NCBI GenBank assembly: GCA_963642055.1
Contig: CAVIFQ010000008.1
Span: 14,805 to 78,804, forward strand
Reading direction: 5' to 3'
DNA: 64,000 nt
From: Roseburia hominis
GTDB lineage: Bacteria; Bacillota_I; Bacilli_A; RFN20; CAG-826
Shown here: positions 1,879-41,049 of the stretch, piece after piece
How the letters are laid out: each line of letters starts with the position of its first letter
How positions within the stretch are numbered: the stretch's first letter is position 1
The notes under the pieces: generated by a model
What the model saw: the letters and a program-made list of their open reading frames with translations, nothing else
Told to the model about the DNA's origin: nothing
The model's database searches: none
Program-made: the position numbers and the translations under genes

Positions 1879-1895
1879 GAAATCTTCTAAATTAG

Positions 1896-1922
1896 GCGCT
1901 GGGCATCACTCAGCGCTTTTTT
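1896..1922 (+). terminator. rho-independent terminator after the symporter gene
   Basis: GCGCTG-ggcatcact-CAGCGC hairpin followed by TTTTTT. Confidence 0.6.
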
Positions 1923-2091
1923 GCTTATAAATCCATTATCCCCGCCAAAACGGCTTTATTTTTTGGATTTTGCCATCAATAACGAGGAAAATCAGAAACC
2001 AATAAGGCGCTTAATTTTATTAAAAATCCCAAAATAAGCATTGACAATATGGGCGGATATCCTAACTTTTTACGAATTGGAGGTAACTTTT

Positions 2092-4675
2092 ATGAAAAAG
2101 AAAAGCATTCTCTTGTTGGGGTTACTTGTGGGGGGGGTCAATCTCGCTTGCTAGTTGCTCACCCGCAACCGATGAATCATCTGCATCATCGTCTGCATCA
2201 ATGAGCGAATCATCATCTATTTTTTCCTCTTTGAAGGAAGGAGCCTTGTCCTATCTAAGCGGAACATTCTATGGCGGAGGAGGGACTTTGACCGCCAACG
2301 AGAAATCCGTCGTTTATGATGGCGACACCAAACTTAGCCTTACGCCAACAAGCGTTGGAAAAATCAAACTCACGAAGGGCGAAGATTCCCAAAAAGCCGT
2401 CGTCGTTTATTTCGATGCCGCCCTCAATAATGGCACCAACTACAGGCTCTATGCCGATATTTTGAATGATGGGTTCATCCATCTCGAGAAAGAAGAAGGC
2501 GATAGTTACACCACAATCGCGACTTTCCAGCCTGATGTCTCGAAATGCTCTGGCACTTATTCCGGTTATCCGGTTGGAGATGACAATCACGGCGTCGATT
2601 ACAACAATTATTTAATTCTCGATCCGAATTTTGATGCTGGCCGGGATGCTTATCCCATGTCATCATTCCTTCCTTATTACAGCTCTTATTCAAGCGAGCA
2701 AGCCTGGCACTACATCGCCCGGATTCGCCTAAGCTCTCTAAAACAGCGTTACTATACTGTCGAATTCTACGATTCGGATAATTACGGATTTGGTGAACTA
2801 TCAGTCGTAAAAACCGCCAACGGATATTGGCTGAGCGACGGATATTACGGCTACTACACCGATGAAGGCGCTTATAACGGCCTCAACCTTTTCGACGGAG
2901 AGAGCGGGGACAGCTTCAGCGTAACCTTAACAGAAGCGGATAAGACTATCACTTTTGGCGAGAAAACTGGCACTTATGAGCTTGCTTACGATGATTTGGG
3001 AACAAGCCTCAACGCTACTTTCGGAGAAGAAAAAGCCAGCATTCGCATGTTCGATCATTACCTCAGTTATGAAAGTGATGGCAAAACAAGCGTATACCCA
3101 ATTGACAGTGTCGATGATTTAAAAGGCACTTTCACCGATAAAACAAACACTTTCTCTTGCGATTCTGATTCGTATACAGGAGAGTACACGGTCAAATTTA
3201 ACGATAAGGCGGTTGACTACAAATGCGTTATCGAGAACAACCGCAAGTCATTCTCCTTCGACGTCGACGGCGTGAATTACATCATCTCGCCAGACAAATA
3301 TGATGTGGCCGTTCGCGTCAATAAAGGCGGCGATATCTCCTATTACATCAATGGCAGCCGTTACGATGAAGCCTTCGTCGACGATTTCGTTGCCCACGAT
3401 AAAGATAATTCCTTCACTCTGAGCGTCAGCAGCGATTTCACCTACACCCTCAATAACGAAAGTGGGAAAGCTGTTTATTCCTACACCCATGGTGATAGGT
3501 ATCCCTCTCTTGTATTAGAAGAAAGCGCGAACCATAAGAAACTAACTCCAGTCTTCGAAAGCGCCGGTTATTTCGTCCTTGAGTCGGATAACGCTGACGA
3601 TGTCACTCTCTATAGCGCTTCTGTCTTAAATGAGGCCTATAACACTTATAGCTCTAACGGCAAAGACACGCTGGTTTTCGATAAAGACAAGCTTACTTAC
3701 AACGGCAAGTCCTACGATTATGAGTTCACGCCTCATTATCAAGAAGGTACCGGTTACTACAATTTTGCAGTTACCTCCAGCCTTGGTCTTCTTATTTATG
3801 ATCCAGATGGATGCGTTTATATCGGTAAAAGTAGTTTTATCACTAAAGACACCTTTGCCACGATTGCTGGAACTTATTCTCTTTACGGAAAATACGGGAT
3901 TGAGAATATCAAAATGAGCGCAACTGGTGATTTAACCCTAGATACCGTCAATAAAGCAGGTGACGGCTTGGACAGAGACGTATCTTACGAGTACGCAATT
4001 ATCATGATGGCCGATAGTAGCTATAACGTCGTGCCGGTGCTTGCTTTTGTTTATGAAGGTATCGGCATTGATGTCTATTTCTATGACGATCATCTCATGA
4101 TTGCTGGCCTAGATTACTACCGGGAAGAGGTTCTCAACAGTTGGGGCGTATACGTAGACGAAGCCAACGAGAACATCCTTTACCTTAATGAAAGTGATGT
4201 TTATCTAAACGGTGATTCTTTGACCATCAAAAAGAGAAGCGAAAGTGACGGCAAACTCGTCTATGAGACCTCTAGTGGAACCATCACTATCGATACAACT
4301 GGGACAACTGCTTCAGCAACCATCGTGAATGGTGAAGATACAATCAATTTGACCCGTAAATATACTTACGAGGATTACAGCAAATTCGCTGGCGAATACG
4401 ACGTCAATTCCACTACCGTTAAATTCGGAAAGGCTAGTTCGGTCAATTTGACATATGAAGCCGTCGTTGGCGAAGGCGACAGCGCTTCGACTATTGAGTT
4501 CAGCGATATGAAATTTGTCTTAAAAGACGGGAAAGTCGCATTGAAATTCTCTGTCTTATTCAGTGGTGATTACTATCTCAGCATGGACGAGGAGACAAAT
4601 ACAGTAAGCGCAAGCTTCGAGGCATCGTCCCTTCCTCCGATCCCTCCAGCACCCCCAGCTCCACCAGCCGCTTAA
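2092..4675 (+). CDS. large surface lipoprotein, frame-disrupted at a G8 tract in the signal peptide (long ORF 2126-4675)
   Basis: GGAGGT RBS at 2078-2083, then ATG at 2092 encoding MKKKSILLLGLLVGG. After the G8 run the long ORF continues in the +1 frame as SISLASCSPATD (lipobox LAS|C). The protein is Ser/Thr/Asp/Tyr-rich with a Pro-rich C-terminus. Confidence 0.7.
2130..2137 (+). repeat. homopolymeric G8 tract
   Basis: Read directly: gtgGGGGGGGtca, inside the lipoprotein signal-peptide region. Confidence 0.95.
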
Positions 4676-4697
4676 GTTCTTCTTTTAGGCTCGTTAA

Positions 4698-4725
4698 ACG
4701 CGCGGAAAAATCCGCGCGTTTTTCT
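4698..4725 (+). terminator. rho-independent terminator after the lipoprotein gene
   Basis: ACGCGCGGA-aaaa-TCCGCGCGT hairpin followed by a T-run. Confidence 0.75.
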
Positions 4726-5034: not shown

Positions 5035-6375
5035 ATGGAATTCAAAAGGAAAATATACAGCCAAATGAAGGAATGGAAGGAAGAGAAAAATCGTAATTCC
5101 GCTCTTTTGATTGAAGGGGCTAGACGAATCGGAAAGACAACCATCGTCAAAGAATTTGCCAAAAAAGAGTATCGCGATTTCATCTATATCGATTTCACCT
5201 ACGCTTCAGATGAAATAAAAGCCTTATTCAAAAGGATCGATCCATCCAAAAGCGGTTCGATGGATCAATTCTTCGCTGATCTTTTTCTCGTTATGGGCAA
5301 ATTATTGAAAAACGGTGATTTGATCATCTTTGACGAGGTCCAGCATTTTCCGCTTGCTCGACAAGCGATAAAAGCTCTGGTTTATGATGGGCGTTTTGAC
5401 TACATAGAGACAGGCTCATTAATCTCGATTAGAGAAAACACGCAAGGAATCCAAATGCCTTCCGAAGAAAGAAGAATCGAGATGCACCCGATGGATTTTG
5501 AGGAATTTTGCTGGGCTTTCGCTTGGGATGAGAAATGCGAATTGCTGCGCACGATTTTTAATGACCATAAAACAATGAGCGAAAGCGCCCACAAGCTTTT
5601 GATGAATGATTTCAGGCTCTATCTAGCTTTAGGAGGCATGCCCAAAGTCATTTCTCTTTACCAAGAAACAAATTCATTCATGCGATGCGAAAAAGAGAAA
5701 CGGGATATCCTCAAACTATATGAGGATGACTTAAGAAAGCATGATGATGGCGCGAAAACGCGTACTCTCGATATTTATGGTTCCATGCTTCCGGCGCTGA
5801 AGTCGTGGTCAAAGCGCATCAAGACCAAAACGAGAGGCCAAAATTCAATGAACTCCTATCAGCGTTCGCTTAAAGATTTGGAGGATTCGAAAATAGTCAA
5901 TTCCGTTTATCGATGCTCCGATTTAAGCTTCAGCTCTTTCATGAAAGAGGAAAACAGTTTCAAACTCTACCCTCTCGATGTCGGATTGATGCTGAGCTCA
6001 CTCATCGGGGATGAGAATGAAGACAGCGAAACCACATATCGCAAAATCAGGATAGGCCACATCGACGGAGCGAATTTCGGAAGTCTATACGAAACGTTCG
6101 TTCTTCAATGTTTAGTAAGCAATGGCAGAAAAGCCTTCTATCACACCTTTGAATATAACGATAAGAAATACGAGATCGATTTTCTTGCTTTCATAAAGGG
6201 CAAAATGAATGCAATCGAAGTCAAATCGACAAAGAGATTCGAAGCTACTTCCTTTCTTTCGCTTCAAGATAAATACCAACAACTTAAATTCAATAAAGTT
6301 GTCATCTCACCCAAGCCGTTGAAATACGAGGATGGGGTTACTTATTTGCCTATTTATATGGCATTCTTGCTGTAA
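5035..6375 (+). CDS. AAA+ ATPase, DUF4143-type (paralog A), with a C-terminal PD-(D/E)xK-like motif
   Basis: Walker A GARRIGKTT and Walker B IIFDEVQ. C-terminal EIDFL...IEVKS (D...ExK). RBS AAAGAGGTG lies upstream. Confidence 0.8.
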   Translation: MEFKRKIYSQMKEWKEEKNRNSALLIEGARRIGKTTIVKEFAKKEYRDFIYIDFTYASDEIKALFKRIDPSKSGSMDQFFADLFLVMGKLLKNGDLIIFDEVQHFPLARQAIKALVYDGRFDYIETGSLISIRENTQGIQMPSEERRIEMHPMDFEEFCWAFAWDEKCELLRTIFNDHKTMSESAHKLLMNDFRLYLALGGMPKVISLYQETNSFMRCEKEKRDILKLYEDDLRKHDDGAKTRTLDIYGSMLPALKSWSKRIKTKTRGQNSMNSYQRSLKDLEDSKIVNSVYRCSDLSFSSFMKEENSFKLYPLDVGLMLSSLIGDENEDSETTYRKIRIGHIDGANFGSLYETFVLQCLVSNGRKAFYHTFEYNDKKYEIDFLAFIKGKMNAIEVKSTKRFEATSFLSLQDKYQQLKFNKVVISPKPLKYEDGVTYLPIYMAFLL

Positions 6376-6504
6376 CGCTTTTTTACGAGGATCGCCGTTT
6401 TTTTCACTAATCTTTTTTGCACCGCAAAAATCAACGAAAAAGAAAAATCCCTGCAAAAATCATTTAAAAAGATAGATTTAATAAAAATCAGTGGGCGAAT
6501 ACCG

Positions 6505-7611
6505 TTAATCGGTGAATCCTAGATCGGACGCTTTTAGACCTTGATATTTCGAGGTTAATTTATAGCTTGTGATTCTCTCGGTCCCAGAGCACGCCTCAAG
6601 AATGCCTTTTTTAGCCCACTCCTTCATCCACTTGGCTGCGGCCCTAGTAGTCACTCCGAATAATCCCGCCACCTCTTTGATCTTAAGAACGCTTATCTCT
6701 TTCTCTACGCAATATCTCAATAACGTAAGATCCTTCTTCGATAGAGCGGAAGTTAATATGTCTGTTTCTTTCTTTGATACCGCTAAAGCTTGTTCATAAA
6801 TCTTTTCGGCATTCAAAGCCATGATTTTGCAGAAGTAGCTAATCCAGATCTCAAGATGAGGAGGATTCTCTCTCCCAGAATAAAATAGGGCCGGGAGTCC
6901 CATTTGAATCGATTCGTAGTATCCGCTCAAATCCGACATGTAGTACTCTTCAAAAGAATTGAAACCCTTAAAATCGTAATCGTGTTGCATCAATACATAA
7001 GTAGCGAGCGCTCTTGAGGTTCTCCCGTTTCCGTCTTCAAAAGGATGAATCGTCACTAAAGCGTAATGGATGATGGATGACAAAACAGGCGCCGGTAGGT
7101 CGCTTGAGGAATCGTACCAAGCAATTAGTTCGTTGAGCAAAGGCTCGATATCGACATATTCAGGCGGAATATATTCAGGCTGTTTTGTGCTCGCATCATA
7201 CACCGCGAACAAAACGCCAGGAGGGGTCATCCCACGAAACGGGATTCTCTTTATCTTTCCGTGCTTTTGGATAATATCATGGAGCTGCAAAATGAATTCT
7301 ACGCTTATTTTTGTGCCCTTTTTGTTCTCTTCTTCTAGAAAAGTCAAAGCGTCCCAGTAATTTTGAACCTCTTGTTCTGCCGTTATCCTTTTTTCGTCTT
7401 GCTTATTGGCGATTACTTTCTCAACTTGGTTATATGAAAGAACATTGCCTTCGATGCTGGTTGAGAAATGAGTTTTCTTGAGTTTAGCCTCATACATGAG
7501 CTTCTGTTTTTCCCTTGTTGGCAGATACAAATAATCCAAGGCTGTTTTGTATTTCTCTATGCTCAAAAGATATGTGACTATCTCGTTGGTATACTTGAAA
7601 TCAAGCTTCAT
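6505..7611 (-). CDS. Fic family protein (class II, with intramolecular inhibitory motif) and a C-terminal wHTH
   Basis: Fic motif HPFEDGNGRTSRAL. The N-terminal STSIEGN matches the [ST]xxxE[GN] inhibitory helix. ATG at 7611 has an upstream GAGGAA; the ORF track extends to a TTG at 7644. Confidence 0.88.
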   Translation of the reverse strand: MKLDFKYTNEIVTYLLSIEKYKTALDYLYLPTREKQKLMYEAKLKKTHFSTSIEGNVLSYNQVEKVIANKQDEKRITAEQEVQNYWDALTFLEEENKKGTKISVEFILQLHDIIQKHGKIKRIPFRGMTPPGVLFAVYDASTKQPEYIPPEYVDIEPLLNELIAWYDSSSDLPAPVLSSIIHYALVTIHPFEDGNGRTSRALATYVLMQHDYDFKGFNSFEEYYMSDLSGYYESIQMGLPALFYSGRENPPHLEIWISYFCKIMALNAEKIYEQALAVSKKETDILTSALSKKDLTLLRYCVEKEISVLKIKEVAGLFGVTTRAAAKWMKEWAKKGILEACSGTERITSYKLTSKYQGLKASDLGFTD

Positions 7612-7767
7612 CAAAGGTTCCTCTTCTCTTTGATATTCTAACAAAACAGAGAACCGTTATTAACGTTTTTCGTTCGCTAATCGTTCGCTATTTGCATTTT
7701 TAGCCCCTTATTTGAGTTCTCGAGAATAGGATTTTGGACAAAAAGAGCACTTATAAAAGCGACTATC

Positions 7768-8670
7768 TCATTCACTATCGTCCCGCTTCTCGAGACTTCT
7801 TTTCTCGCTCAATTCCTTCTCGATGCTATCGATGAGTTTAGAAGCGCACTCCTTGATAAAAGATAGGTTCTTCCTGAATTTTGATATATCACCGCTCCCC
7901 CATCCCACAATATAAGAGAAATTGAAATTCTTGGTGTCTAGCCCTAAATACGAACAAACAATGCAGGCTATGGATTCGGCTTCAACTTCCTTTATCTCTC
8001 TTTTCTCTTTAACCGATAAGCCAAGAAAATCAGCCCTTGGGAAAGAATGCGCTAGAGCATGCCCACATTCGTGAGTTAGCGTCGATATCGTTTGAAGATC
8101 CGACATGCCTTTGAGAATTTTGATCTCGCCACTTTTGTGATTGCAAGAGCCGTAGCAATCTTCGCCGAGCTCCTCTTTATTAACGAAGGAAATAGAGAAA
8201 CCGATGGCCTTCATTAATCTATTCGCCCCTAAAATAATTTCCTTTTTCCTTTCAATCGTTTTTGATTCATCGAAAGCGAAGACATTGATTTCTTCCCCTT
8301 CTGTTTGTGAGATATCAAAGACGCTTGTTAGGCGAAATCCCAGCAAAACCTTCTTTTCTTTTTCGTTTTTATCCTCAGCCTTTTTAACGATTGGGCTGAA
8401 TATTTTGATGGATCTCTCGCCTTTTTTAATCCTTCTTCCAAGAGCATTCCACTTCTTCACGCCATAACAAGCATGGGCGTCTTGCTTTTGCATCAAGATA
8501 TAAATCTGATTATTGAGGGAATAATGAGAGAGGTTTCCCATGGCGAGCAGCACCTCTTTGTATTTTCCTTCCTTCAAGAAGCGCTCTAGCTCCAAATCGA
8601 TTTTGCTTACAAGATCATCGATTTCTTTCCTATCGATTTTTCTTTTCTCTTGTTTCTTTTTCTTTCTCAT
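7768..8670 (-). CDS. ArdC-like protein (N-terminal ssDNA-binding domain plus HExxH zincin protease domain)
   Basis: YSLNNQIYILMQ...WNALGRRIKKGERSIKIFSPI resembles the ArdC N-domain, and THECGHALAH is a metalloprotease motif. ATG at 8670 is preceded by AGGAGG. Confidence 0.7.
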   Translation of the reverse strand: MRKKKKQEKRKIDRKEIDDLVSKIDLELERFLKEGKYKEVLLAMGNLSHYSLNNQIYILMQKQDAHACYGVKKWNALGRRIKKGERSIKIFSPIVKKAEDKNEKEKKVLLGFRLTSVFDISQTEGEEINVFAFDESKTIERKKEIILGANRLMKAIGFSISFVNKEELGEDCYGSCNHKSGEIKILKGMSDLQTISTLTHECGHALAHSFPRADFLGLSVKEKREIKEVEAESIACIVCSYLGLDTKNFNFSYIVGWGSGDISKFRKNLSFIKECASKLIDSIEKELSEKRSLEKRDDSE

Positions 8671-8870
8671 GGAGGTCCCTCCTATCTTGAGAGGGTTAAA
8701 GAGTCCCTCACCCATATATAGAAAGAAAAAGGCTCTTTTCTCGATCGCTCTTTCTTTGAAGCATCTCTTCGCGAAATCAAAGAGAGGCCAAATGATGCTT
8801 CATTTTTCGCATCGCATATCAATTTTGCTTACATAAATAAGACCGTTTACTACCCTTAAAATTTGGCGGA

Positions 8871-31708: not shown

Positions 31709-34339
31709 TTACAAATTCCCCATCAGTAGGTCTTTCCATCGATTGTAATAGTCTTCGAAGATATCCCAGGTGATAAGACCCTTGCCGATGGATACCCCCA
31801 GATATTTGCAAGGCAATAGGTCATATATCTCTTTCGGGAAGTACTTTTCAAAACTCTCGTACCCAAGCAGTCCGTATTCTTGAATATCGGCGTCCATCTT
31901 TTCTTTGTCGAAGGCGAGGGTGTTGGGATCATACTCGAAGATGTTGTAAAGCCCATTTAACCCGGCCTCGATGCTCAGCATATCGTCGGTCACCAAATTG
32001 AGATGGTTCGCCGTGGCCGGCGCAGCCAAAGCTGTAAACATCTTCTTGATCGATGCAGAGACCAATGTCGTCGTCGAAACCCTTCCCTTGTCGTAGCAGA
32101 CGAACTCGTGGCCAATGTATTCGTCAAAATTGTCTTCATAAAGATTAACGTACTTGTTCAAGGTCTTGTCGAAATAAGCGTGCCTATAGATATAGTCGGT
32201 CGAATTGCCATTCGAGAACTCGAGATGCACGATATTACGCATTTCGACCCCGCTATCGGAGTGATCGTTCCCGATGACACGGTTTGGCTCGAACTGACCG
32301 GTCCCGTGGTTAAACGAGATAACCATGTCGCCGGTTTTGATTTCTCCAGCTTGTTTGTAGGTGCCATCGGCCATAAGGACTCTTGCGGTCGGCAATAAGC
32401 AACCGCCAGAGGAATAATAAGCTTCATATTCTCCAGACTCTAACGACATAGAGGCGGTTTCTCCATTTTTGCGCGTAAAAGAAAGGGAACACTTCAGTTT
32501 ATAGTATACTGAACCACTAGATGAAGCCGGCGCGGTGAAAGAAACGCTATATCCATTTGTTTTCAAAGTAATGCTACTTTTGGTGCTGATATTGCTTTTG
32601 TTGGTGCTTTCAAAAAGCTGCCATTCTAAATTAACGTTAGAATCATAACTTGGGCAATTAAAAATAGCGTTAACAGTGTAGGTTTTCTCATCACTTGATG
32701 ATCCGGAAGGATTATCGATCGTTAGTGATGTTAAGTCGGTGAATGAATTATCGCTCCAATAATTACTACATAAAGAATAAGTTTTCTCTTTCTCAAGCCT
32801 AAAAGTTGAAAATGCTGTTTCGCTTTCGATTTTATATGTTTCGGCAGACTCGGAATGCACATTCCAGCCATTATCATTATTGTCTATTCGCTCTTTCGAT
32901 ACATAAAAATCAACAAATTCGCTTCCAGTAGTAACAGTTCCACCATTGTCGCTATCAGTCGTATTTATGACACCACCAAAACTGCTATTGATGGTGAGAG
33001 CCCCATCAACAACTAATTTCGCTCTTCCCATTTTTGTATATTGAGGAGACACATTGTTACTTCCAATGGTCAGAATAGGGGAATATGACTGATAAAAAGT
33101 TATAGGTGCATTCATTATGCATGTTGCTTTTTTCCCTATAGTTAAAGATGAGCCTGTTAAAAATTTCATTTTATTCGCAATTGTTAGAGTTCCTGTATTC
33201 TGGGTTATCTGAAATTTATAAGAAATTGGGCATTCAATAGAAGACGAATTAAAAGTGTATCCGGGGATCCTGACTACGATAGATGATAATTTCAGGTCGC
33301 CATCAATGGTAATTTTTGTGTAATTTGCCGTATTGCCTGTTGTATTGTTACTTACATCTGAGGTTGAATAACCAAAATTTGAAGGGACATATTTCAAAGT
33401 TGCATTGCCGTTGCACATTTTAAACAAACAGTCTTCACTCTCTTTACCTAGGACTAATATTTCGCCTGAGTTATAACTAGATAGCGCATACAAAAGCGCA
33501 AATCCAATTAATTTAGAACCCAAATTAAAAACTTGCTCTACATGGCAATTAGGAAAATCGAAATAGCTAAACGGCATAGAATATTTGGGGTAAGCCTTAT
33601 CGGAATAAGTTCCACCCCTAAAGTCGTAGATTGTGAAAGGCATTTTTACGCTTCCCGTTGAAGAATTCACAATCGAACTACCGTTATCTTTTGACGACTC
33701 CTTTATATATCCATATAGATTGATAGAGCCGCTATTTTGTATTTTGGAACTTGCTTTCATAAGGATTTCACAATAACTACCAATAGTGAATCCGGATGGT
33801 CTTTGATTTGATTCAGCACCTACTCCTATTTTTCCAGCCACATCAATCGTTCCGTTGTTAATGATTGTCACGCCTTCAGCGATTGTGAGTATGTTTTTTC
33901 GATTCGTTTTTACTGCCGAAGCATCCTTATCAGCAAAGCCATTATTTGACTGATTTTTATAGTTCGTATAATCGCTATAAGACCAATCGGTTTGATTGAA
34001 ATCATAAGGAAGAATCAGCGAAACGTTTGTCCCTATAGTGCACCTCCTAGTGATTGTGGGATTTGTTCCAGGGAGCACAACGACGGTCTGTTTATCAGTC
34101 GCATTCGCTGAGACTTCAAGTGCCTTTTCGATCGATGTGTATTTCGTTCTAGCCGTTTGCCCATCGACTGTTTTTTCTAAATAGCAAACGACTACACTGT
34201 CACTGGTTTTTGCGCTTACTTGTTTAGAATAATTATCGGGGTCCGGATTCACGATATGCCATTTCCCATTTCCGACATTTATCGCTGAAAAAAGAGTTGC
34301 CATAAATAGAAATATCTTTGCAAAACCGCTATATTTCAT
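31709..34339 (-). CDS. secreted beta-rich (beta-helix-like) protein with a C-terminal Hint (hedgehog/intein-like) autoprocessing domain
   Basis: Signal peptide MKYSGFAKIFLFMATLFSAINVG. Residue 647 onward reads GG|CLLPTARVLMADGTYKQAGEIKTGDMVISF, a Hint N-terminal block, followed by 230 aa. Confidence 0.65.
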   Translation of the reverse strand: MKYSGFAKIFLFMATLFSAINVGNGKWHIVNPDPDNYSKQVSAKTSDSVVVCYLEKTVDGQTARTKYTSIEKALEVSANATDKQTVVVLPGTNPTITRRCTIGTNVSLILPYDFNQTDWSYSDYTNYKNQSNNGFADKDASAVKTNRKNILTIAEGVTIINNGTIDVAGKIGVGAESNQRPSGFTIGSYCEILMKASSKIQNSGSINLYGYIKESSKDNGSSIVNSSTGSVKMPFTIYDFRGGTYSDKAYPKYSMPFSYFDFPNCHVEQVFNLGSKLIGFALLYALSSYNSGEILVLGKESEDCLFKMCNGNATLKYVPSNFGYSTSDVSNNTTGNTANYTKITIDGDLKLSSIVVRIPGYTFNSSSIECPISYKFQITQNTGTLTIANKMKFLTGSSLTIGKKATCIMNAPITFYQSYSPILTIGSNNVSPQYTKMGRAKLVVDGALTINSSFGGVINTTDSDNGGTVTTGSEFVDFYVSKERIDNNDNGWNVHSESAETYKIESETAFSTFRLEKEKTYSLCSNYWSDNSFTDLTSLTIDNPSGSSSDEKTYTVNAIFNCPSYDSNVNLEWQLFESTNKSNISTKSSITLKTNGYSVSFTAPASSSGSVYYKLKCSLSFTRKNGETASMSLESGEYEAYYSSGGCLLPTARVLMADGTYKQAGEIKTGDMVISFNHGTGQFEPNRVIGNDHSDSGVEMRNIVHLEFSNGNSTDYIYRHAYFDKTLNKYVNLYEDNFDEYIGHEFVCYDKGRVSTTTLVSASIKKMFTALAAPATANHLNLVTDDMLSIEAGLNGLYNIFEYDPNTLAFDKEKMDADIQEYGLLGYESFEKYFPKEIYDLLPCKYLGVSIGKGLITWDIFEDYYNRWKDLLMGNL

Positions 34340-34893
34340 TGATTTACAGCCCTCAATTTAAAATCGAATTTTAGTTGATTAGATTTCTCATAAAGAGAAC
34401 TGATGTTCCCATCACTATCAACTATGGCATATGTTAAAGAGGCTGAAGTAGTCCCTGTATTACCGCTAATAGGGAAAGACAAAGTATAAGTTAAAGAACT
34501 ATCAACTGTTGTAGGGTCACTTACGGTTACTGAATTCGGTTCGACAGCCAACGAAGTTACATATGAAAGAAAATCCGCCTTATTCGGAGTGAGAGAGATA
34601 CTCATCAAAAAAGTGTTGTCTTTCAAATATCCAAGCGAATCAGCGTTTTTATTATTGATATCGAATTTGATGACGATGCTCGCACCACTAACGATGGTTT
34701 CATCACTGACAATACCGTCTTTGCACAAAGTAAAAGCGCTTGCCTCCTTGACGGAAAAAATCTTTATTTCATCTACTTCATCAGCTGTTGCTGATATAGA
34801 AACGTATTCCTGAGGATCAACTTTCCAGCTTGCAAAGCCGACGGCGAAAAGCGAAGTCGCTAAAATGAGACCCCCCCCCCGCAAAGTAGGCAT
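34336..34893 (-). CDS. small secreted beta-rich protein, translationally coupled (ATGA) to the Hint protein gene; G10 tract at codons 5-8
   Basis: Signal-peptide-like MPTLRGGGLILATSLFAVGFA|SW. An alternative upstream ATG cluster (34928-34952) lies in another frame. Confidence 0.5.
   Translation of the reverse strand: MPTLRGGGLILATSLFAVGFASWKVDPQEYVSISATADEVDEIKIFSVKEASAFTLCKDGIVSDETIVSGASIVIKFDINNKNADSLGYLKDNTFLMSISLTPNKADFLSYVTSLAVEPNSVTVSDPTTVDSSLTYTLSFPISGNTGTTSASLTYAIVDSDGNISSLYEKSNQLKFDFKLRAVNQ
34871..34880 (-). repeat. homopolymeric C10 (G10 on the coding strand)
   Basis: Read directly: gagaCCCCCCCCCCgcaaag. Confidence 0.95.
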
Positions 34894-35070
34894 TTTATCG
34901 CACTTTTTCTCTTTTCACTCGCTTTCATAGACCTCATTTTTGCCTTACTCATAAGCTTTTTCAATAGACAAAATTTCGCCTCATGTCCAAATACAGGAAA
35001 TCAACTTCAAATTTTGCTCATTTTTGACGAAAAAAGGACCGACTATTTTGCCGATCCATTGCTTTTTGAG

Positions 35071-35201: not shown

Positions 35202-38200
35202 TTAAAAGAGCGTCATCTGGTTGCTTTCGCCTAATCCGTCAAGCGAGCCTAGTTTTCTTAAATCCTCGATATTTCTCTCGCTTAATTTCGTGCGGTCCTT
35301 TAGATCCTCAATCGAGATGAATTTGCCATCTTCTCTGGCTTTCACGACCGTCTCGGCTGCGTTTAAGCCAAGGTTATCGAGAACCATGAAAGGTGGGATG
35401 AGGGATTTATTTTTCTCATCGACCACGAAATCCTGGGCATCGCTCTTATATAGGTCGATATTACTGAAACGATATCCTCTTTCTAGCATCTCGCTTGCGA
35501 CTATAAGCGTTTTGAGGATTTCCGCTTCTTTTGGCGAGAAGGCTTTCTTATCCTGTGATTTAAGTTGGAGATTCGCGATTTCCTTATATACCGCCTTCTT
35601 GCCAGCTTTCATGGTGGCGATATCCCATTTATCGCAGCGAACCGAGAAATAGATGGCGTAAAAATGGAGCGGCATATAAAGCTTATACCAAGCCATTCTG
35701 ACAGCCCCCATGACGTAAGCCGTAGCGTGAGCGCGAGGGAAAAGATACTGGATCTTCCGGCACGATTCGATATACCAATCCGGTACCCCATGTTTCTTCA
35801 TCTCGGGTACATACACCGCTTCTTTCTTCTTGAACTTGCCATGCCCGTGTCTCACATCTTCCATGATTTGGAAGGATAAGGAGGAATCAACGCCCATCGA
35901 GATAAGGTAGTTCATAATATCGTCACGGCATCCGATGACTCCGTCCAAACTCGCGGTCTTGCTCGTGATGATATCTTCGGCGTTGTTGTTCCAGACATCG
36001 GTACCGTGGCTTAAGCCCGAAATAATCAATAAGTCGTTGAAAGAATGCGGCAAGGCCTTAGAAAGCAATCCTTGCACGAAGTTGGTGCCAAATTCTGGAA
36101 GAGCCACCGCCCCTGTAGCGAATTTAAGCGGGTTATCCGCCATATTGAGTTCTTTGGGAGAAGAGAATAAGGAAAGGACTTTCGGATCATCCATCGGTAT
36201 TTTCTTGAAGTCGTATTTGGTGAGCAAACTTAGTTTACGTAAAGCGAGTGGGTCAACGTGCCCCAGCAAATCGAGCTTAAGGACCTCATCGTGCATGGAA
36301 GCAAAGTCATAATGGGTGGTGAGCCAGTCACTCGTCAAATCATCGGCCGGGTGCTGATACGGAGTGAAATCGAAAACATCCATATCCTTCGGGATAACGA
36401 CGATGCCGCCAGGATGTTGCCCGGTCGTGCGCTTGACGCCTTGGCATTTGCTCGCGATTTTCGCAATCTGCGGGGTCGGGACAGTATTGGGGTCAATGCC
36501 CATCTTCTCGTAATATCCACGCACGAAACCGAAGGCGATCTTCTCAGCAACCGTTTCGATCGTCCCAGCGCGGTAGCAGTTATTCTCCCCTAATAAGGTA
36601 CGCGTATAGGCGTGGGCGCGCGATTGATAATCCGGTGGGAAGTTCAAATCGATATCCGGGACTTTCTCAGCCTTGAAGCCAAGGAAGGTCTGGAATGGGA
36701 TCGATTGTCCGTTCTTTTCCATGATAGTCCCACAATGTGGGCACTTCTTCTCAGGCAAATCAAAGCCGCTTCTGACGTTTTTGAATTTCAGGTCCTCGTT
36801 AGCCCACTCGAAATGTTTGCAGTTTGGGCAAAGATAGTGCGGAGAAAGCGGATTGACCTCGGTGATGTCAGCCATCGTGGCCGCGAAAGAGGAACCGACC
36901 GAGCCTCTAGAACCGACAAAATAGCCATCCTCATTGGCCTTTTTGATAATGCAGTGCGCGATATAGTAGGTGACCGAATAACCGTTTCCGATAATACCGT
37001 CAAGCTCATCATCAAGACGTTTTTTCACGGCTGGATCAGGGTTTTCGCCGTAGCGGAGCCGTAAGTTGGTGTAGCAGATTTCGCGTAGACGCTCGGCGCT
37101 ATCAGGAAGATTCGCGTTCGGAGGGAAAGTGCCCATCTTCACTGGCTGAAGCTCTCCCGTCAAAGAAGCGATCTTTCGCGTATTGTCGACGATAATCTCC
37201 TGGCATTTATCGAGCGGAAGCCACTTCGAGAAAGATTCGAGCATCTCGCTTGTGGAGCGGAAATGCTGGTCAGGGTTAGGGAAACGCGGGAGACGCGCCC
37301 TGAAAGGAGGGTTAAGAGGATGAGAACCATTGCCAATAGCCTTGGCCTCAATATAGACGTCACGGCAAATCTTATCCTCAGGATTCACGTAATGGACGTC
37401 GCCCGTCGCGCAGACTGGAATTCCTAACTCATCTGCGGCTTTAATAATGGTATTAAGCACCTCTAAAAGGCGCGATTCGCTGATATCGTGGGTATTGATG
37501 AGGTAGGAATAATTCTCTAAGGGTTGGATTTCGATGTAGTCATAGAAAGACATTATCTCTTTCAGCTTGTCATAAGGGTCATAAGTGGCGCTTCTAAAGA
37601 CTTCGCCATTGAAGCAAGCGCTCCCGAAAAGAAGATTTTTCCTTAATCTAGCAAGCTCCGATTTCGGGATTTTCGGAAGGTCGGCGAGATAGGTGGTATT
37701 GCTTAAAGAGACAAGCGCATAAAGGTCTTTGAGGCCTTGCTCGTTTTTCACAAGGGCAATCATATGCGTGGCGCGGATGTTCTTGTAGAAATTGGAGACC
37801 GTCTCCTTAACAAGATTATTGAGCTCATCCATGCTCGCTTGGCCTTTTTCAACTTTCTCTTTTAAGGGAGCGAAGCGGAAATAGTTCTCGTCGATGCGGA
37901 GGTTCGCGAGGTCTTTATGGAGCATGTCGCCTTTCGGATTGAGGATTGGGAGCATCACCGCCCAAGCGTTCCAAAGACTCTCGGCGTCAGCATCGGCGCG
38001 GTGAGCGGCATCTTCTTTATAATCCGGCAAACCTAAATTCTTATAGAGATCCTCAAGTTTATGGTATCTCCGATCAGGGAAAAGATAATGGGAGAGAGGC
38101 AAAGTATCGATAACAGGGTTAGTGAAAGGTTTTAAGCCCATGCGCTTTCTCGATTCATTGAGGAAGCCGATATCGAAAGAGGCGTTGTGGGAGACGAGAA

Positions 38201-39641
38201 TCGTGTCTTTGATGAATTCCTCGATTTGGGGCATCAGTTCCTCAATCGTCGGCTTATCCTTCACCATCTCATCGGTGATGTGCGTCTTATCGACGATCAC
38301 TTGCGGGATTTTCACCCCTGGGTTGATAAGCGAATCAAAACGTTTGGTGACAGTGCCATTCTCAATCAAAACGCCACCGAATTCGGTCATGCGGTCGAAC
38401 ATGCTCGATAAGCCGGTCGTTTCGGTATCGAATACGCAATATCTAGCGTTCGACAAAGAGATATCGGAAGGATTGAAAACGTAGGCTGGGAAAGGGTCGA
38501 ACATATAGAATTCGCACCCGTAGACCATATGTAAACCTGTCGCTTTCGCGGCCTTTTGGGCGTCAGGGAAGGCTTGGATGCAGCCATGGTCAGTGACAGC
38601 GATAGCCTCCATCCCCATATTTTTCGCGAGGGCGCAGTAATCGCTCATCTCTCCTAAACCATCCATCGTGCTCATCTTGGTGTGAAGATGGAGCTCGACG
38701 CGCTTCGTTTTGGCTTCATCCGTCCTTAAGGGTTTAGGAGGGAGTTTCTCTACCGCATCGATCGTCACCAGCTGCTCACCCGAGAATTTATCAGGGGCCA
38801 CGCGCCCTTTTATAAGAACGTAATCCCCGACTTTGATGCCTTGGATTTCCTCAGCCGATAGACCGTTTCCGTTCTCGAAAGCCTTCATGTCAATCGCGCT
38901 GTCATCATCGCCAATGCCGTAACTCCCCGTTAGTTTGCCCTTCCGGTTCAATTTGCTGTCGGCTTCGAAAATGACGCCTTTGAATTTGACGTTCACCATT
39001 TGGAGAGAATAAAGCTCTTTGATGGATTTGATTTCGAGGTAGTTGCCTTTTCTTGAATAACGTTCGCTTTTGATAGAGTTGATGTACTCTTTCTCGACGC
39101 GCCCGATTTCTTCTTGATAATTCTTTTCCTGCTCTATCTCGTAGGAGCTTTTGCTTTCCTCTTTTTCCTTCGCGTCCTCTTTTTTCTCGACCTCGATTTG
39201 CTTCTCTTCGTACTTATATAAAGCTGGGTAAGAGATGAAAGAAAGGAGCTCATTGAATTCCTTCAAAAGAGCGTTATTTTCCTTTTCGTTTCCATTATCG
39301 TAGGCTTTTGCGTAGATTTTCGTATCATCGCCCTCAAGCAAAGAGAAGGAGGAAACGCTGCGATAATGAGATAATTGCCACGAAGCGAAAAGCGAAGAAA
39401 TATCATCGATTTGCGGGGTTTTTTCATATTCGAAGCGGATTTCGTAGAGATAATGAATATTGTTGAGGCAAGCGATGAATTCCTCGAGCTTGTCGTATTC
39501 CCATGGGCTCTCTTTCTTGATGAGGAAATTCACCTTGTAACGGTTCCTCTCGTCTTTCTTGCAATAAGTAAAAGACAAGTCGTAGCTAGAAGGATCCGCG
39601 ACATGGATAGACTCTAGAAAACGAAGCATCCGCTGTTCCAT
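35202..39641 (-). CDS. polC: DNA polymerase III alpha subunit, PolC type
   Basis: About 1479 aa. PHP region VELHLHTKMSTMDG, internal DnaQ-like exonuclease YCVFDTETTGLS, and the Cys4 region CPNC...CPHCG. The MEQRML start lies just after the rseP stop. Confidence 0.95.
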   Translation of the reverse strand: MEQRMLRFLESIHVADPSSYDLSFTYCKKDERNRYKVNFLIKKESPWEYDKLEEFIACLNNIHYLYEIRFEYEKTPQIDDISSLFASWQLSHYRSVSSFSLLEGDDTKIYAKAYDNGNEKENNALLKEFNELLSFISYPALYKYEEKQIEVEKKEDAKEKEESKSSYEIEQEKNYQEEIGRVEKEYINSIKSERYSRKGNYLEIKSIKELYSLQMVNVKFKGVIFEADSKLNRKGKLTGSYGIGDDDSAIDMKAFENGNGLSAEEIQGIKVGDYVLIKGRVAPDKFSGEQLVTIDAVEKLPPKPLRTDEAKTKRVELHLHTKMSTMDGLGEMSDYCALAKNMGMEAIAVTDHGCIQAFPDAQKAAKATGLHMVYGCEFYMFDPFPAYVFNPSDISLSNARYCVFDTETTGLSSMFDRMTEFGGVLIENGTVTKRFDSLINPGVKIPQVIVDKTHITDEMVKDKPTIEELMPQIEEFIKDTILVSHNASFDIGFLNESRKRMGLKPFTNPVIDTLPLSHYLFPDRRYHKLEDLYKNLGLPDYKEDAAHRADADAESLWNAWAVMLPILNPKGDMLHKDLANLRIDENYFRFAPLKEKVEKGQASMDELNNLVKETVSNFYKNIRATHMIALVKNEQGLKDLYALVSLSNTTYLADLPKIPKSELARLRKNLLFGSACFNGEVFRSATYDPYDKLKEIMSFYDYIEIQPLENYSYLINTHDISESRLLEVLNTIIKAADELGIPVCATGDVHYVNPEDKICRDVYIEAKAIGNGSHPLNPPFRARLPRFPNPDQHFRSTSEMLESFSKWLPLDKCQEIIVDNTRKIASLTGELQPVKMGTFPPNANLPDSAERLREICYTNLRLRYGENPDPAVKKRLDDELDGIIGNGYSVTYYIAHCIIKKANEDGYFVGSRGSVGSSFAATMADITEVNPLSPHYLCPNCKHFEWANEDLKFKNVRSGFDLPEKKCPHCGTIMEKNGQSIPFQTFLGFKAEKVPDIDLNFPPDYQSRAHAYTRTLLGENNCYRAGTIETVAEKIAFGFVRGYYEKMGIDPNTVPTPQIAKIASKCQGVKRTTGQHPGGIVVIPKDMDVFDFTPYQHPADDLTSDWLTTHYDFASMHDEVLKLDLLGHVDPLALRKLSLLTKYDFKKIPMDDPKVLSLFSSPKELNMADNPLKFATGAVALPEFGTNFVQGLLSKALPHSFNDLLIISGLSHGTDVWNNNAEDIITSKTASLDGVIGCRDDIMNYLISMGVDSSLSFQIMEDVRHGHGKFKKKEAVYVPEMKKHGVPDWYIESCRKIQYLFPRAHATAYVMGAVRMAWYKLYMPLHFYAIYFSVRCDKWDIATMKAGKKAVYKEIANLQLKSQDKKAFSPKEAEILKTLIVASEMLERGYRFSNIDLYKSDAQDFVVDEKNKSLIPPFMVLDNLGLNAAETVVKAREDGKFISIEDLKDRTKLSERNIEDLRKLGSLDGLGESNQMTLF

Positions 39642-39645
39642 ATCT

Positions 39646-41049
39646 TCACACCAAAAATTGGAGAATGTCCTTGATCGTGATGAAAACGGCAAGAAGCATA
39701 AGGAGGCCTAAACCCACCAAGGAAGCGATGCTCTTGGCTTTCTGCGGCATCTTCTTCTTGAAGCCCTTCTCCACGATGGTGACTAGTAACCCCCACCCAT
39801 CAAGCCCAGGGAAAGGCAAAAGATTGAAGATAGCGAGGTTAAGCGAAATGAGGCCGCCATAATAGAAGAAGGTCTTTCCCCAGCCCATGTAGCTTGATAA
39901 CTGCGATAAGCCAGCACCCATCGCGACGATTCCGCCGATATTATTGATATTGCCCATGAAGATGCTCTTGATAGCTTCCCCGATAAGCGGGAAGAAATTC
40001 ACCCAATCCAGACATCCGACAAGGAGTCTCTTCCCGAAAGGCAGCCAGTACTCATTGCTGTAAGTAGTCAAAGAGGGTCCGCTCCAGCTAGAAGAAGAAT
40101 AAGTGGCCTCGACTTTCTTTTGAAAGCGCGTAGCCACGATTTGCCCTTCATTATTCATATCGGCGAGCGTAATACTCATCTTAAGGATGTCGCCATCGGA
40201 TAGAGTTATTTTCCCGCTCGCAAAATCCGGGTAATAGTTGACTCCTAATTGTTTCTCAATCGATTCGTCATCGACCGGATCGCTTCTAGTATATACAGAC
40301 AAACAGGAATAGAAGTTGTTTCCGCTTCTTTCATTCGCCGGGTAATAAAGGACAACGGCGCTCTTATCGCCACTTTTCGTGCTCAAGATAGCTTCCGAAT
40401 CGATGACAAAGCCGTATTCGGTCTGTTTTTCGGATATCGCAAGCCCAACGGAAAGAAGTCTATATTCATCTTGCTTATCTTTTTCGCCGAGAGTTTCTTC
40501 ATCGCCCTCGATATAGAAGCCATACACCCAGGGATGGCCTGAATTGACGCCCACGCGGAAAGTGCCACCAGTATAAGGGGAAGCCACATAAGAGGTTGTA
40601 GCTTCGCTTGCGATATCGACCGCGGAAAGCGATTGATAGCTTTGGTAATTCGGGAACGAGATGGCGTAAATCAAACAGAAAAGGAAAGAAAGAACGAGGT
40701 TTACGGTGATGCCGGCCACCAAAATGAGGCACTTTTTCCAAGCGGCGATACCCTCTAGACTCCGCTCCGGCGGGATATTGGCGAACTTGTTGTCTTCCTC
40801 ATCGTCTTTGTCGTCATTGATCCCTTCTCCGTACATCGAGACGTAGCCGCCAAGTGGGATCGCGCGGATCGAGAAAGTGGTCTCGCCACCTTTCTTTTTG
40901 TGCGAGAAAAGCTTTGGACCGAAGCCGATGGAATACTCATCGCAGTAGACCCCAAAGCGCTTGGCCATGAATAAGTGGCCGGCTTCGTGGGTGCTGATGA
41001 GGATACCGAGCATCACTAGAAGGATTATGATCGTTACGAATATATGCAT
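39646..41049 (-). CDS. rseP: RIP (site-2) zinc metalloprotease RseP/RasP
   Basis: HEAGH motif in TM1 and the C-terminal [10 protein letters not shown] motif. Confidence 0.85.

Follow-up and report, generated by a model that had tools for sequence, protein, structure and literature searches.

Genes that vary bacterial surfaces by switching have been described in Campylobacter jejuni, Helicobacter pylori, Neisseria, Bifidobacterium breve, Listeria monocytogenes and Mycoplasma, and these are the systems closest to the locus reported here. The locus is a run of eight G's (G8) in the signal-peptide codons of a predicted surface-lipoprotein gene, located in a 64,000-nucleotide stretch of a Roseburia hominis assembly (GCA_963642055.1, contig CAVIFQ010000008.1, positions 14,805 to 78,804 of the forward strand; CAG-826 in the GTDB lineage), hereafter the window. 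The poly-G/C genes of C. jejuni (Bayliss et al. 2012, PMC3401435; known also in H. pylori) resemble it in several respects: the genome is small and lacks functional MutS/MutL-type repair, its G/C runs show a second mode at lengths of 8-10 (the modal tract in C. jejuni is G9), and intragenic tracts toggle surface-structure genes at many independent loci per genome. In the absence of mismatch repair, G8-G9 tracts of C. jejuni are highly unstable and G8/G9 tracts switch at high rates (PMC3401435). C. jejuni differs in phylum and envelope from the monoderm Bacilli considered here; its targets are mostly glycan-modifying enzymes, whereas the tracts considered here mainly affect protein genes, in codons of the signal peptide or membrane anchor, and switching rates have been measured there, whereas here switching is predicted from sequence.

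The Neisseria genes hpuA and hmbR (poly-G within the open reading frame, PMC3786947) and opa (CTCTT repeats in signal-peptide codons) share with the present locus a repeat in the 5' coding or leader region of a surface protein or lipoprotein and ON/OFF control by frameshift. The opa genes, moreover, form a multigene family in which each copy switches on its own and most are off, as with a six-paralog family of the genome studied here. The Neisseria genes have no sequence homology to ours, the opa repeat is a pentamer and not a homopolymer, and the products are diderm outer-membrane proteins of known function. Gram-positive precedents from the gut include the sortase-dependent pilus genes of B. 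breve, switched on and off by slippage in an intragenic G tract (PMC9187656), and inlA of L. monocytogenes, a gut-associated surface gene with homopolymer slippage in the 5' poly-A of its coding region (PMC2831843). These are single loci in organisms that possess mismatch repair, whereas the tracts described here are genome- and genus-wide and accompany no detectable MutS/MutL. The variable lipoproteins of Mycoplasma (Vlp, Vsa, Vpma, P78 and Vaa) are comparable in being surface proteins that bacteria with small genomes, of Mollicutes-like type, vary at high frequency. Both P78 and Vaa make use of a homopolymer in the coding region. In contrast to our locus, Vlp relies on promoter poly-A, Vsa and Vpma on site-specific inversion (PMC2268961), and the tracts are rich in A and not in G. 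An earlier note on this sequence likened the gene to the Mycoplasma lipoproteins; the likeness holds for the mechanism and does not extend to descent, no homology to Vlp, Vsa or Vpma being detected with Pfam (E <= 0.001). The same note proposed a slipped-strand ON/OFF switch, a reading which is supported by a near-identical ON allele, G7 tracts in orthologs, a genomic excess of tracts and no detectable MutS/MutL. We conclude from these sequence comparisons that the G8 tract is very probably a slippage-driven ON/OFF contingency locus of a surface-lipoprotein gene, caught in the OFF state.

The tract occupies positions 2130-2137 of the plus strand, where it supplies Gly-Gly codons to the hydrophobic core of the signal peptide. 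The reading frame of the signal peptide begins at ATG 2092, 7 nt downstream of a GGAGGT ribosome-binding site on the same strand; the motif had been recognised previously, and its actual coordinates are 2079-2084 rather than 2078-2083. The sequence GAGGTAAC is conserved in the alignment with orthologs from two sister species (genomes G083 and G090). As assembled, the frame from ATG 2092 yields an OFF product of 20 codons, MKKKSILLLGLLVGGVNLAC, and terminates at the TAG at 2152-2154 (2092-2154, plus strand). The body of the lipoprotein is encoded in another frame, which is intact over 849 codons (2126-4675, plus strand), opens at TTG 2126 and translates as LWGGSISLASCSPATD..., running on as ..GGSISLASC. 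In simulations of the tract length, seven or ten G's join the ATG 2092 frame to the long frame and produce MKKKSILLLGLLVGG(G)SISLASCSPATD, whereas eight or nine keep the two frames apart. Near the lipobox the fused product reads MKKKSILLLGLLVGG(G)SISLAS/CSPATD (the slash preceding the lipobox cysteine), so that a basic n-region is followed by a hydrophobic core and the L-A-S-C lipobox. The start codon, tract, stop codon and long frame described in the earlier note are thus all present as claimed, and the canonical lipoprotein signal peptide with LAS/C that it expected of G7 or G10 is what the simulation returns.

The lipobox lies at 2147-2158 (plus strand) of the long frame, as located in the G7 simulation and in the ON allele P0020, and the mature protein would begin with the lipidated Cys 2156-2158. 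Both the G7 frame and P0020 display a lipoprotein signal of the form MKKK-SILLLGLLVGGSIS-LAS/C (lipobox pattern [LVI][ASTVI][GAS]C), and the genome encodes LGT (PF01790, 161 bits, contig C15) and Peptidase_A8/LspA (PF01252, 111 bits, contig C6). The frame is open under translation table 11, and the organism uses the standard code. The gene caller had shortened the gene to 824 aa by starting it at an internal ATG. Neither this ATG nor TTG 2126 was retained as a functional start, as neither yields a signal peptide. A signal peptide is present in 16 of the 18 listed homolog calls and in all eight orthologous genome loci.

The gene has close alleles in other assemblies. P0020, from the same 90% cluster, is 860 aa long and 97% identical over 849 aa, and its start, MKKKDILLLGLLVGGSISLASC, is that of the predicted G7/ON fusion. 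A third allele, P0021, is 90% identical and was called from an internal start, like the gene here. Among the species-representative genomes of the genus, the closest orthologs are those of G083 (61% identity) and G090 (60%), and both carry an in-frame G7 at the homologous column amid diverged flanking codons. The repeat number thus differs between close relatives at the same site, G8 here against G7 in both sister species, and the comparison of tract lengths among relatives that the earlier note had called for finds the in-frame form in these two and in P0020. A homopolymer at this position is confined to the two nearest orthologs; orthologs that share 54% identity or less begin with an ordinary lipoprotein signal peptide that lacks a tract, and of the 15 homolog calls at greater distance 13 have a lipobox (P0006-P0014 and P0016-P0019). 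As judged from this distribution, with G7 in G083 and G090 and no tract at or below 54% identity, the tract arose in one clade, which has retained it, and its length varies among close alleles. Further relatives were sought elsewhere. A scan of genome contigs for the lipoprotein only returned no confirmed relative, an exact pattern laid across the tract, in which the gap could vary, had no matches in metagenome contigs, and a profile of the close homologs recovered from these contigs only two distant relatives of 38-41% identity.

The intact allele bears on whether the gene is a recent, permanent pseudogene, its frameshift being a product of ordinary decay. As assembled, the locus cannot give rise to an exported protein, and reduced genomes do lose genes. 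However, each of the 849 codons downstream is open and the sequence shares 97% identity with the intact allele, the break sits exactly in a conserved homopolymer, and about ten genes here, as well as many genomes of the genus, have the same design, a recurrence not expected under random decay. Permanent loss of the gene therefore appears very improbable.

The tract belongs to a class of runs that is overrepresented in the genome as a whole (1.705 Mb in 69 contigs, 46% G+C, 96% complete). Shuffling the window with its dinucleotides preserved gives an unremarkable result: six matches to a pattern of seven or more G's against a mean of 2.9, with six or more in 12 of 100 shuffles. This null is unfit for the genome, because its G/C runs fall steeply to length 7 and then rise again, the exact-length counts being 784, 41 and 3 for lengths 5, 6 and 7, followed by 5, 3 and 3 for lengths 8, 9 and 10. 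The 11 runs of at least 8 compare with about 0.24 extrapolated from the decay (Poisson 3e-15). A/T runs, by comparison, decay monotonically to length 8 (6689, 2035, 245, 18) and are absent at lengths 9-15; lone poly-A runs are found beyond this range, one of 16 at a contig start (C43:1-16) and one of 18 at C5:11273-11290. In the long open reading frames (ORFs) of the genome Gly-Gly is written as GGGGGG in 9 of 1754 cases (0.5%), so the retention of this spelling in three species is not neutral.

The long runs also occupy distinctive positions. Of the 12 scorable G/C runs of at least 7, nine lie close to the 5' end of a long ORF, within 45 codons of its upstream stop; for runs of 5-6 the share is 12-15% (Fisher p = 1.5e-6). 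The sense strand carries the G's in all nine. Ten 5' tracts are located in codons of a signal peptide or N-terminal anchor. One of these is ON as assembled and nine are OFF, with an offset of +1 in five, -1 in three, and one scored only as out of frame. The genes bearing tracts are the 849-aa lipoprotein, a second lipoprotein, a sensor kinase of the LytS/YesM type and six paralogs of a family of anchored proteins. The second lipoprotein, also large, has an LAGC lipobox followed by G10 (C68:2096-2105) and then a long poly-Ser linker. In the histidine kinase (PF06580 and HATPase_c) a G7 ends the first membrane helix (C2:80954-80960, corresponding to locus L050:2001-2007); the gene is out of frame as assembled and would be ON with five or eight G's, which suggests a phase-variable sensor kinase.

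Other long runs were observed outside this 5' set. An out-of-frame G7 lies within the gene of an Octopine_DH-like dehydrogenase (C48:2233-2239), a non-5' tract that adds a further -1 offset. In-frame G8 runs occur within a hexapeptide acyltransferase gene (C24:3520-3527) and in the middle of an ORF of 1074 aa (C19:1481-1488), and a G9 at C9:35068-35076 is apparently intergenic.

The anchored-protein family is represented in the window by a second tract, a G10 at 34871-34880 on the minus strand. The frame affected has 192 codons (34336-34914) and its start at ATG 34951; the tract falls in codons of its N-terminal membrane anchor and is OFF as assembled and ON at 8 or 11. This gene follows a tRNA and shares an ATGA overlap with the start of an 876-aa ORF (31709-34339), which has no Pfam match; a Hint-like C-terminus suspected in this ORF by eye is not supported by Pfam. 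The six paralogs of the family are N-terminally anchored proteins of 190-260 aa which are only 23-31% identical to each other, and all keep G7-G10 at one N-terminal position. Family homologs are known from 20 other species, and in 20 of the 28 loci fetched from them G6-G11 stands in the same N-terminal place: three of these tracts are in frame, 16 are out of frame and one is at a contig edge.

The high proportion of out-of-frame consensus tracts in the family (16 of 19) hints that out of frame may not mean silent. Transcriptional slippage or programmed frameshifting might read through such tracts, in which case the tract would govern how much protein is made and not whether it is made. Long homopolymers, chiefly A/T runs, are known to make polymerases slip; for G8 such slippage is poorly documented. 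In-frame G7 alleles are common for the lipoprotein gene, as a plain DNA switch predicts; a frameshift-stimulating structure was neither noticed nor searched for, and three ON tracts out of 19 are not significantly fewer than the one third expected (binomial p = 0.08). We therefore give read-through little credence compared with switching at the DNA level.

The same family counts speak to the simplest alternative, raised already in the earlier note, in which the extra G is a sequencing or assembly miscall of a true G7 and the lipoprotein gene is simply on. Indel errors classically fall in homopolymers, the assembly is fragmented and of metagenome type, with two of its 69 contigs breaking at poly-G tracts, and the in-frame alleles found elsewhere are G7. 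The contigs in question, C61 (G9 at 13-21; the contig carries a SIS-domain gene) and C68 (G10), end within about 45 nt of the tract, which is compatible with either low coverage or length heterogeneity. Against a miscall, nine of the ten 5' tracts here are out of frame and their offsets go either way; in other species, assembled independently, 16 of the 19 tracts of the family are also out of frame. Out-of-frame tracts being the rule across independent assemblies, errors would have to be the norm and not the exception. The roughly 230 A/T7 runs of the genome show no excess of frame junctions over A/T6 (5% each), and homopolymer errors are thus not a general problem of the assembly; its N-gapped scaffolds suggest short reads, in which consensus errors at G8 are rare. 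Even with a wrong call at this locus, a conserved G7 in a genome that avoids G runs remains slippage-prone, and sequencing error leaves the comparative pattern unexplained. A miscall thus seems improbable to us, if less so than decay of the gene or read-through.

Some of the evidence for a slippage switch is open to objection. The frame-junction control is noisy, with a background of about 5% contributed by neighbouring genes, and shows only the lack of a length-dependent excess at A/T runs. The tract length of P0020 was deduced from its protein and not from DNA. There is also no synteny with the sister species that bear G7, no flanking genes being shared within 1.5 kb, and orthology consequently rests on the gene and its conserved leader.

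The genomic background is consistent with unstable tracts. The lineage comprises monoderm, PolC-bearing Bacilli (PolC is encoded at 35202-39692 of the window, as identified with Pfam) that are uncultured and inhabit the gut or rumen, a placement given by the closest matches of PolC; the literature on its metagenome-assembled genomes yielded nothing relevant. No MutS_I or MutL_C domain was found in the present genome at its completeness of 96%, nor was MutS_I found in any of the 52 genomes of the genus with completeness of at least 90%, while control genomes were positive. Across the genus, 62 of 78 independently assembled genomes contain G runs of at least 8.

The following sequence of events probably underlies the switch. 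Within a monocistronic gene for a surface lipoprotein, the G8 tract of the signal-peptide codons would form a hypermutable contingency locus of the simple-sequence type. Either the nascent or the template strand would slip in this G run as the DNA is replicated, and with no detectable MutS/MutL to repair the resulting loop, a G would be gained or lost at high frequency. Cells with seven or ten G's would translate the prelipoprotein MKKKSILLLGLLVGGSISLAS/C from ATG 2092, which would be processed by Lgt and LspA and displayed on the cell surface. In cells with eight or nine G's translation would terminate after 20 codons and the protein would be absent, and the assembled consensus would represent the OFF state of the population. 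The gene would be one of about ten such loci in the genome, a phasome in which nearly all members are genes of surface-anchored proteins. We infer the rate and reversibility of slippage and the surface exposure of the lipoprotein, and the selective agent may be host antibody, phage or another changing pressure.

The lipoprotein itself has no Pfam family at E <= 0.001, and all its homologs are unnamed proteins of related uncultured Bacilli. A search of the ESM Atlas likewise gave no family, with Lipocalin_4 as the only, weak lead. The AlphaFold2 model, built with 17 homologs, is confident and all-beta (pLDDT 85.8), with a disordered leader and linker at residues 1-43 and a Pro-rich tail; in its layout, an acidic, Ser-rich linker is followed by about eight small beta-barrel domains in tandem and then by the tail. 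Searched as a whole against PDB with Foldseek, the model returned just large beta-rich matches with a TM of about 0.1, which are meaningless. By exhaustive alignment, single domains of ~85 residues (48-148, 259-338, 420-510 and 678-758) match small eight-stranded barrels at Z 8-9, a range typical of common arrangements that supports the fold only. The matches include the barrel domain of 1ei5, Treponema Tp0435 and Tp0751, the N-domain of NlpE and a lipocalin-like protein of Bacteroides. We tentatively read the protein as a surface lipoprotein made of about eight tandem lipocalin-like barrels. Between P0001 and the alleles P0020 and P0021, differences over residues of about 540-720 are patchy, for example around 555-575 and 625-710. 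Such a mosaic points to recombination or to diversifying selection acting on some of the barrels.

The gene appears to be transcribed on its own. Upstream, a hairpin resembling an intrinsic terminator (1894-1918, plus strand; a 10-pair stem with a T tail) ends the neighbouring gene of an MFS transporter (MFS_2, 370-1878), and a second such hairpin with an 11-pair stem stands 3' of the lipoprotein gene (4696-4721, plus strand). Flanked by the two, the gene constitutes its own transcription unit. A TTGACA at 2041-2046 (plus strand) occupies columns that are invariant in both sister-species orthologs, and is a candidate -35 box; a scan for promoters found no canonical -10 near it and no full promoter match, and its role in a promoter is conjectured from the sequence. 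Directly downstream of the lipoprotein gene, an AAA_14/DUF4143 ATPase, a Fic-domain protein and an ArdC-N-like protein are encoded at 5035-8715 of the window, a gene set that looks like a mobile element.

Phase variation has mostly been studied in a few pathogens, and the same design is found here in an uncultured commensal lineage known only from metagenomes. The mechanism is well known, and the locus matters mainly as a member of a genus-wide poly-G phasome in a little-studied lineage. Its genomic signature consists of a second mode of G runs, 5' placement, tracts conserved in paralogs and orthologs, and no detectable mismatch repair. We see an even chance that the whole genus, with genomes of 1-2 Mb, runs a stochastic, Opa-like display of surface proteins, in which the tract of the multicopy anchored-protein family has been kept at one N-terminal position in at least 20 species, most copies are off at any one time, and the 849-aa lipoprotein, the other lipoprotein and the sensor kinase have since come under the same kind of control. 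Genes of this type are cut short or missed by gene callers, and the surface proteomes of such genomes are consequently under-annotated in a systematic way. The tract loci point to proteins that face changing selection in the gut, be it from antibody, phage or another source, and can serve as markers of within-host population dynamics in metagenomic reads. If the pattern is true of the whole genus, poly-G phasomes would be a general colonisation strategy of commensal monoderms, one that can be read from metagenome assemblies.

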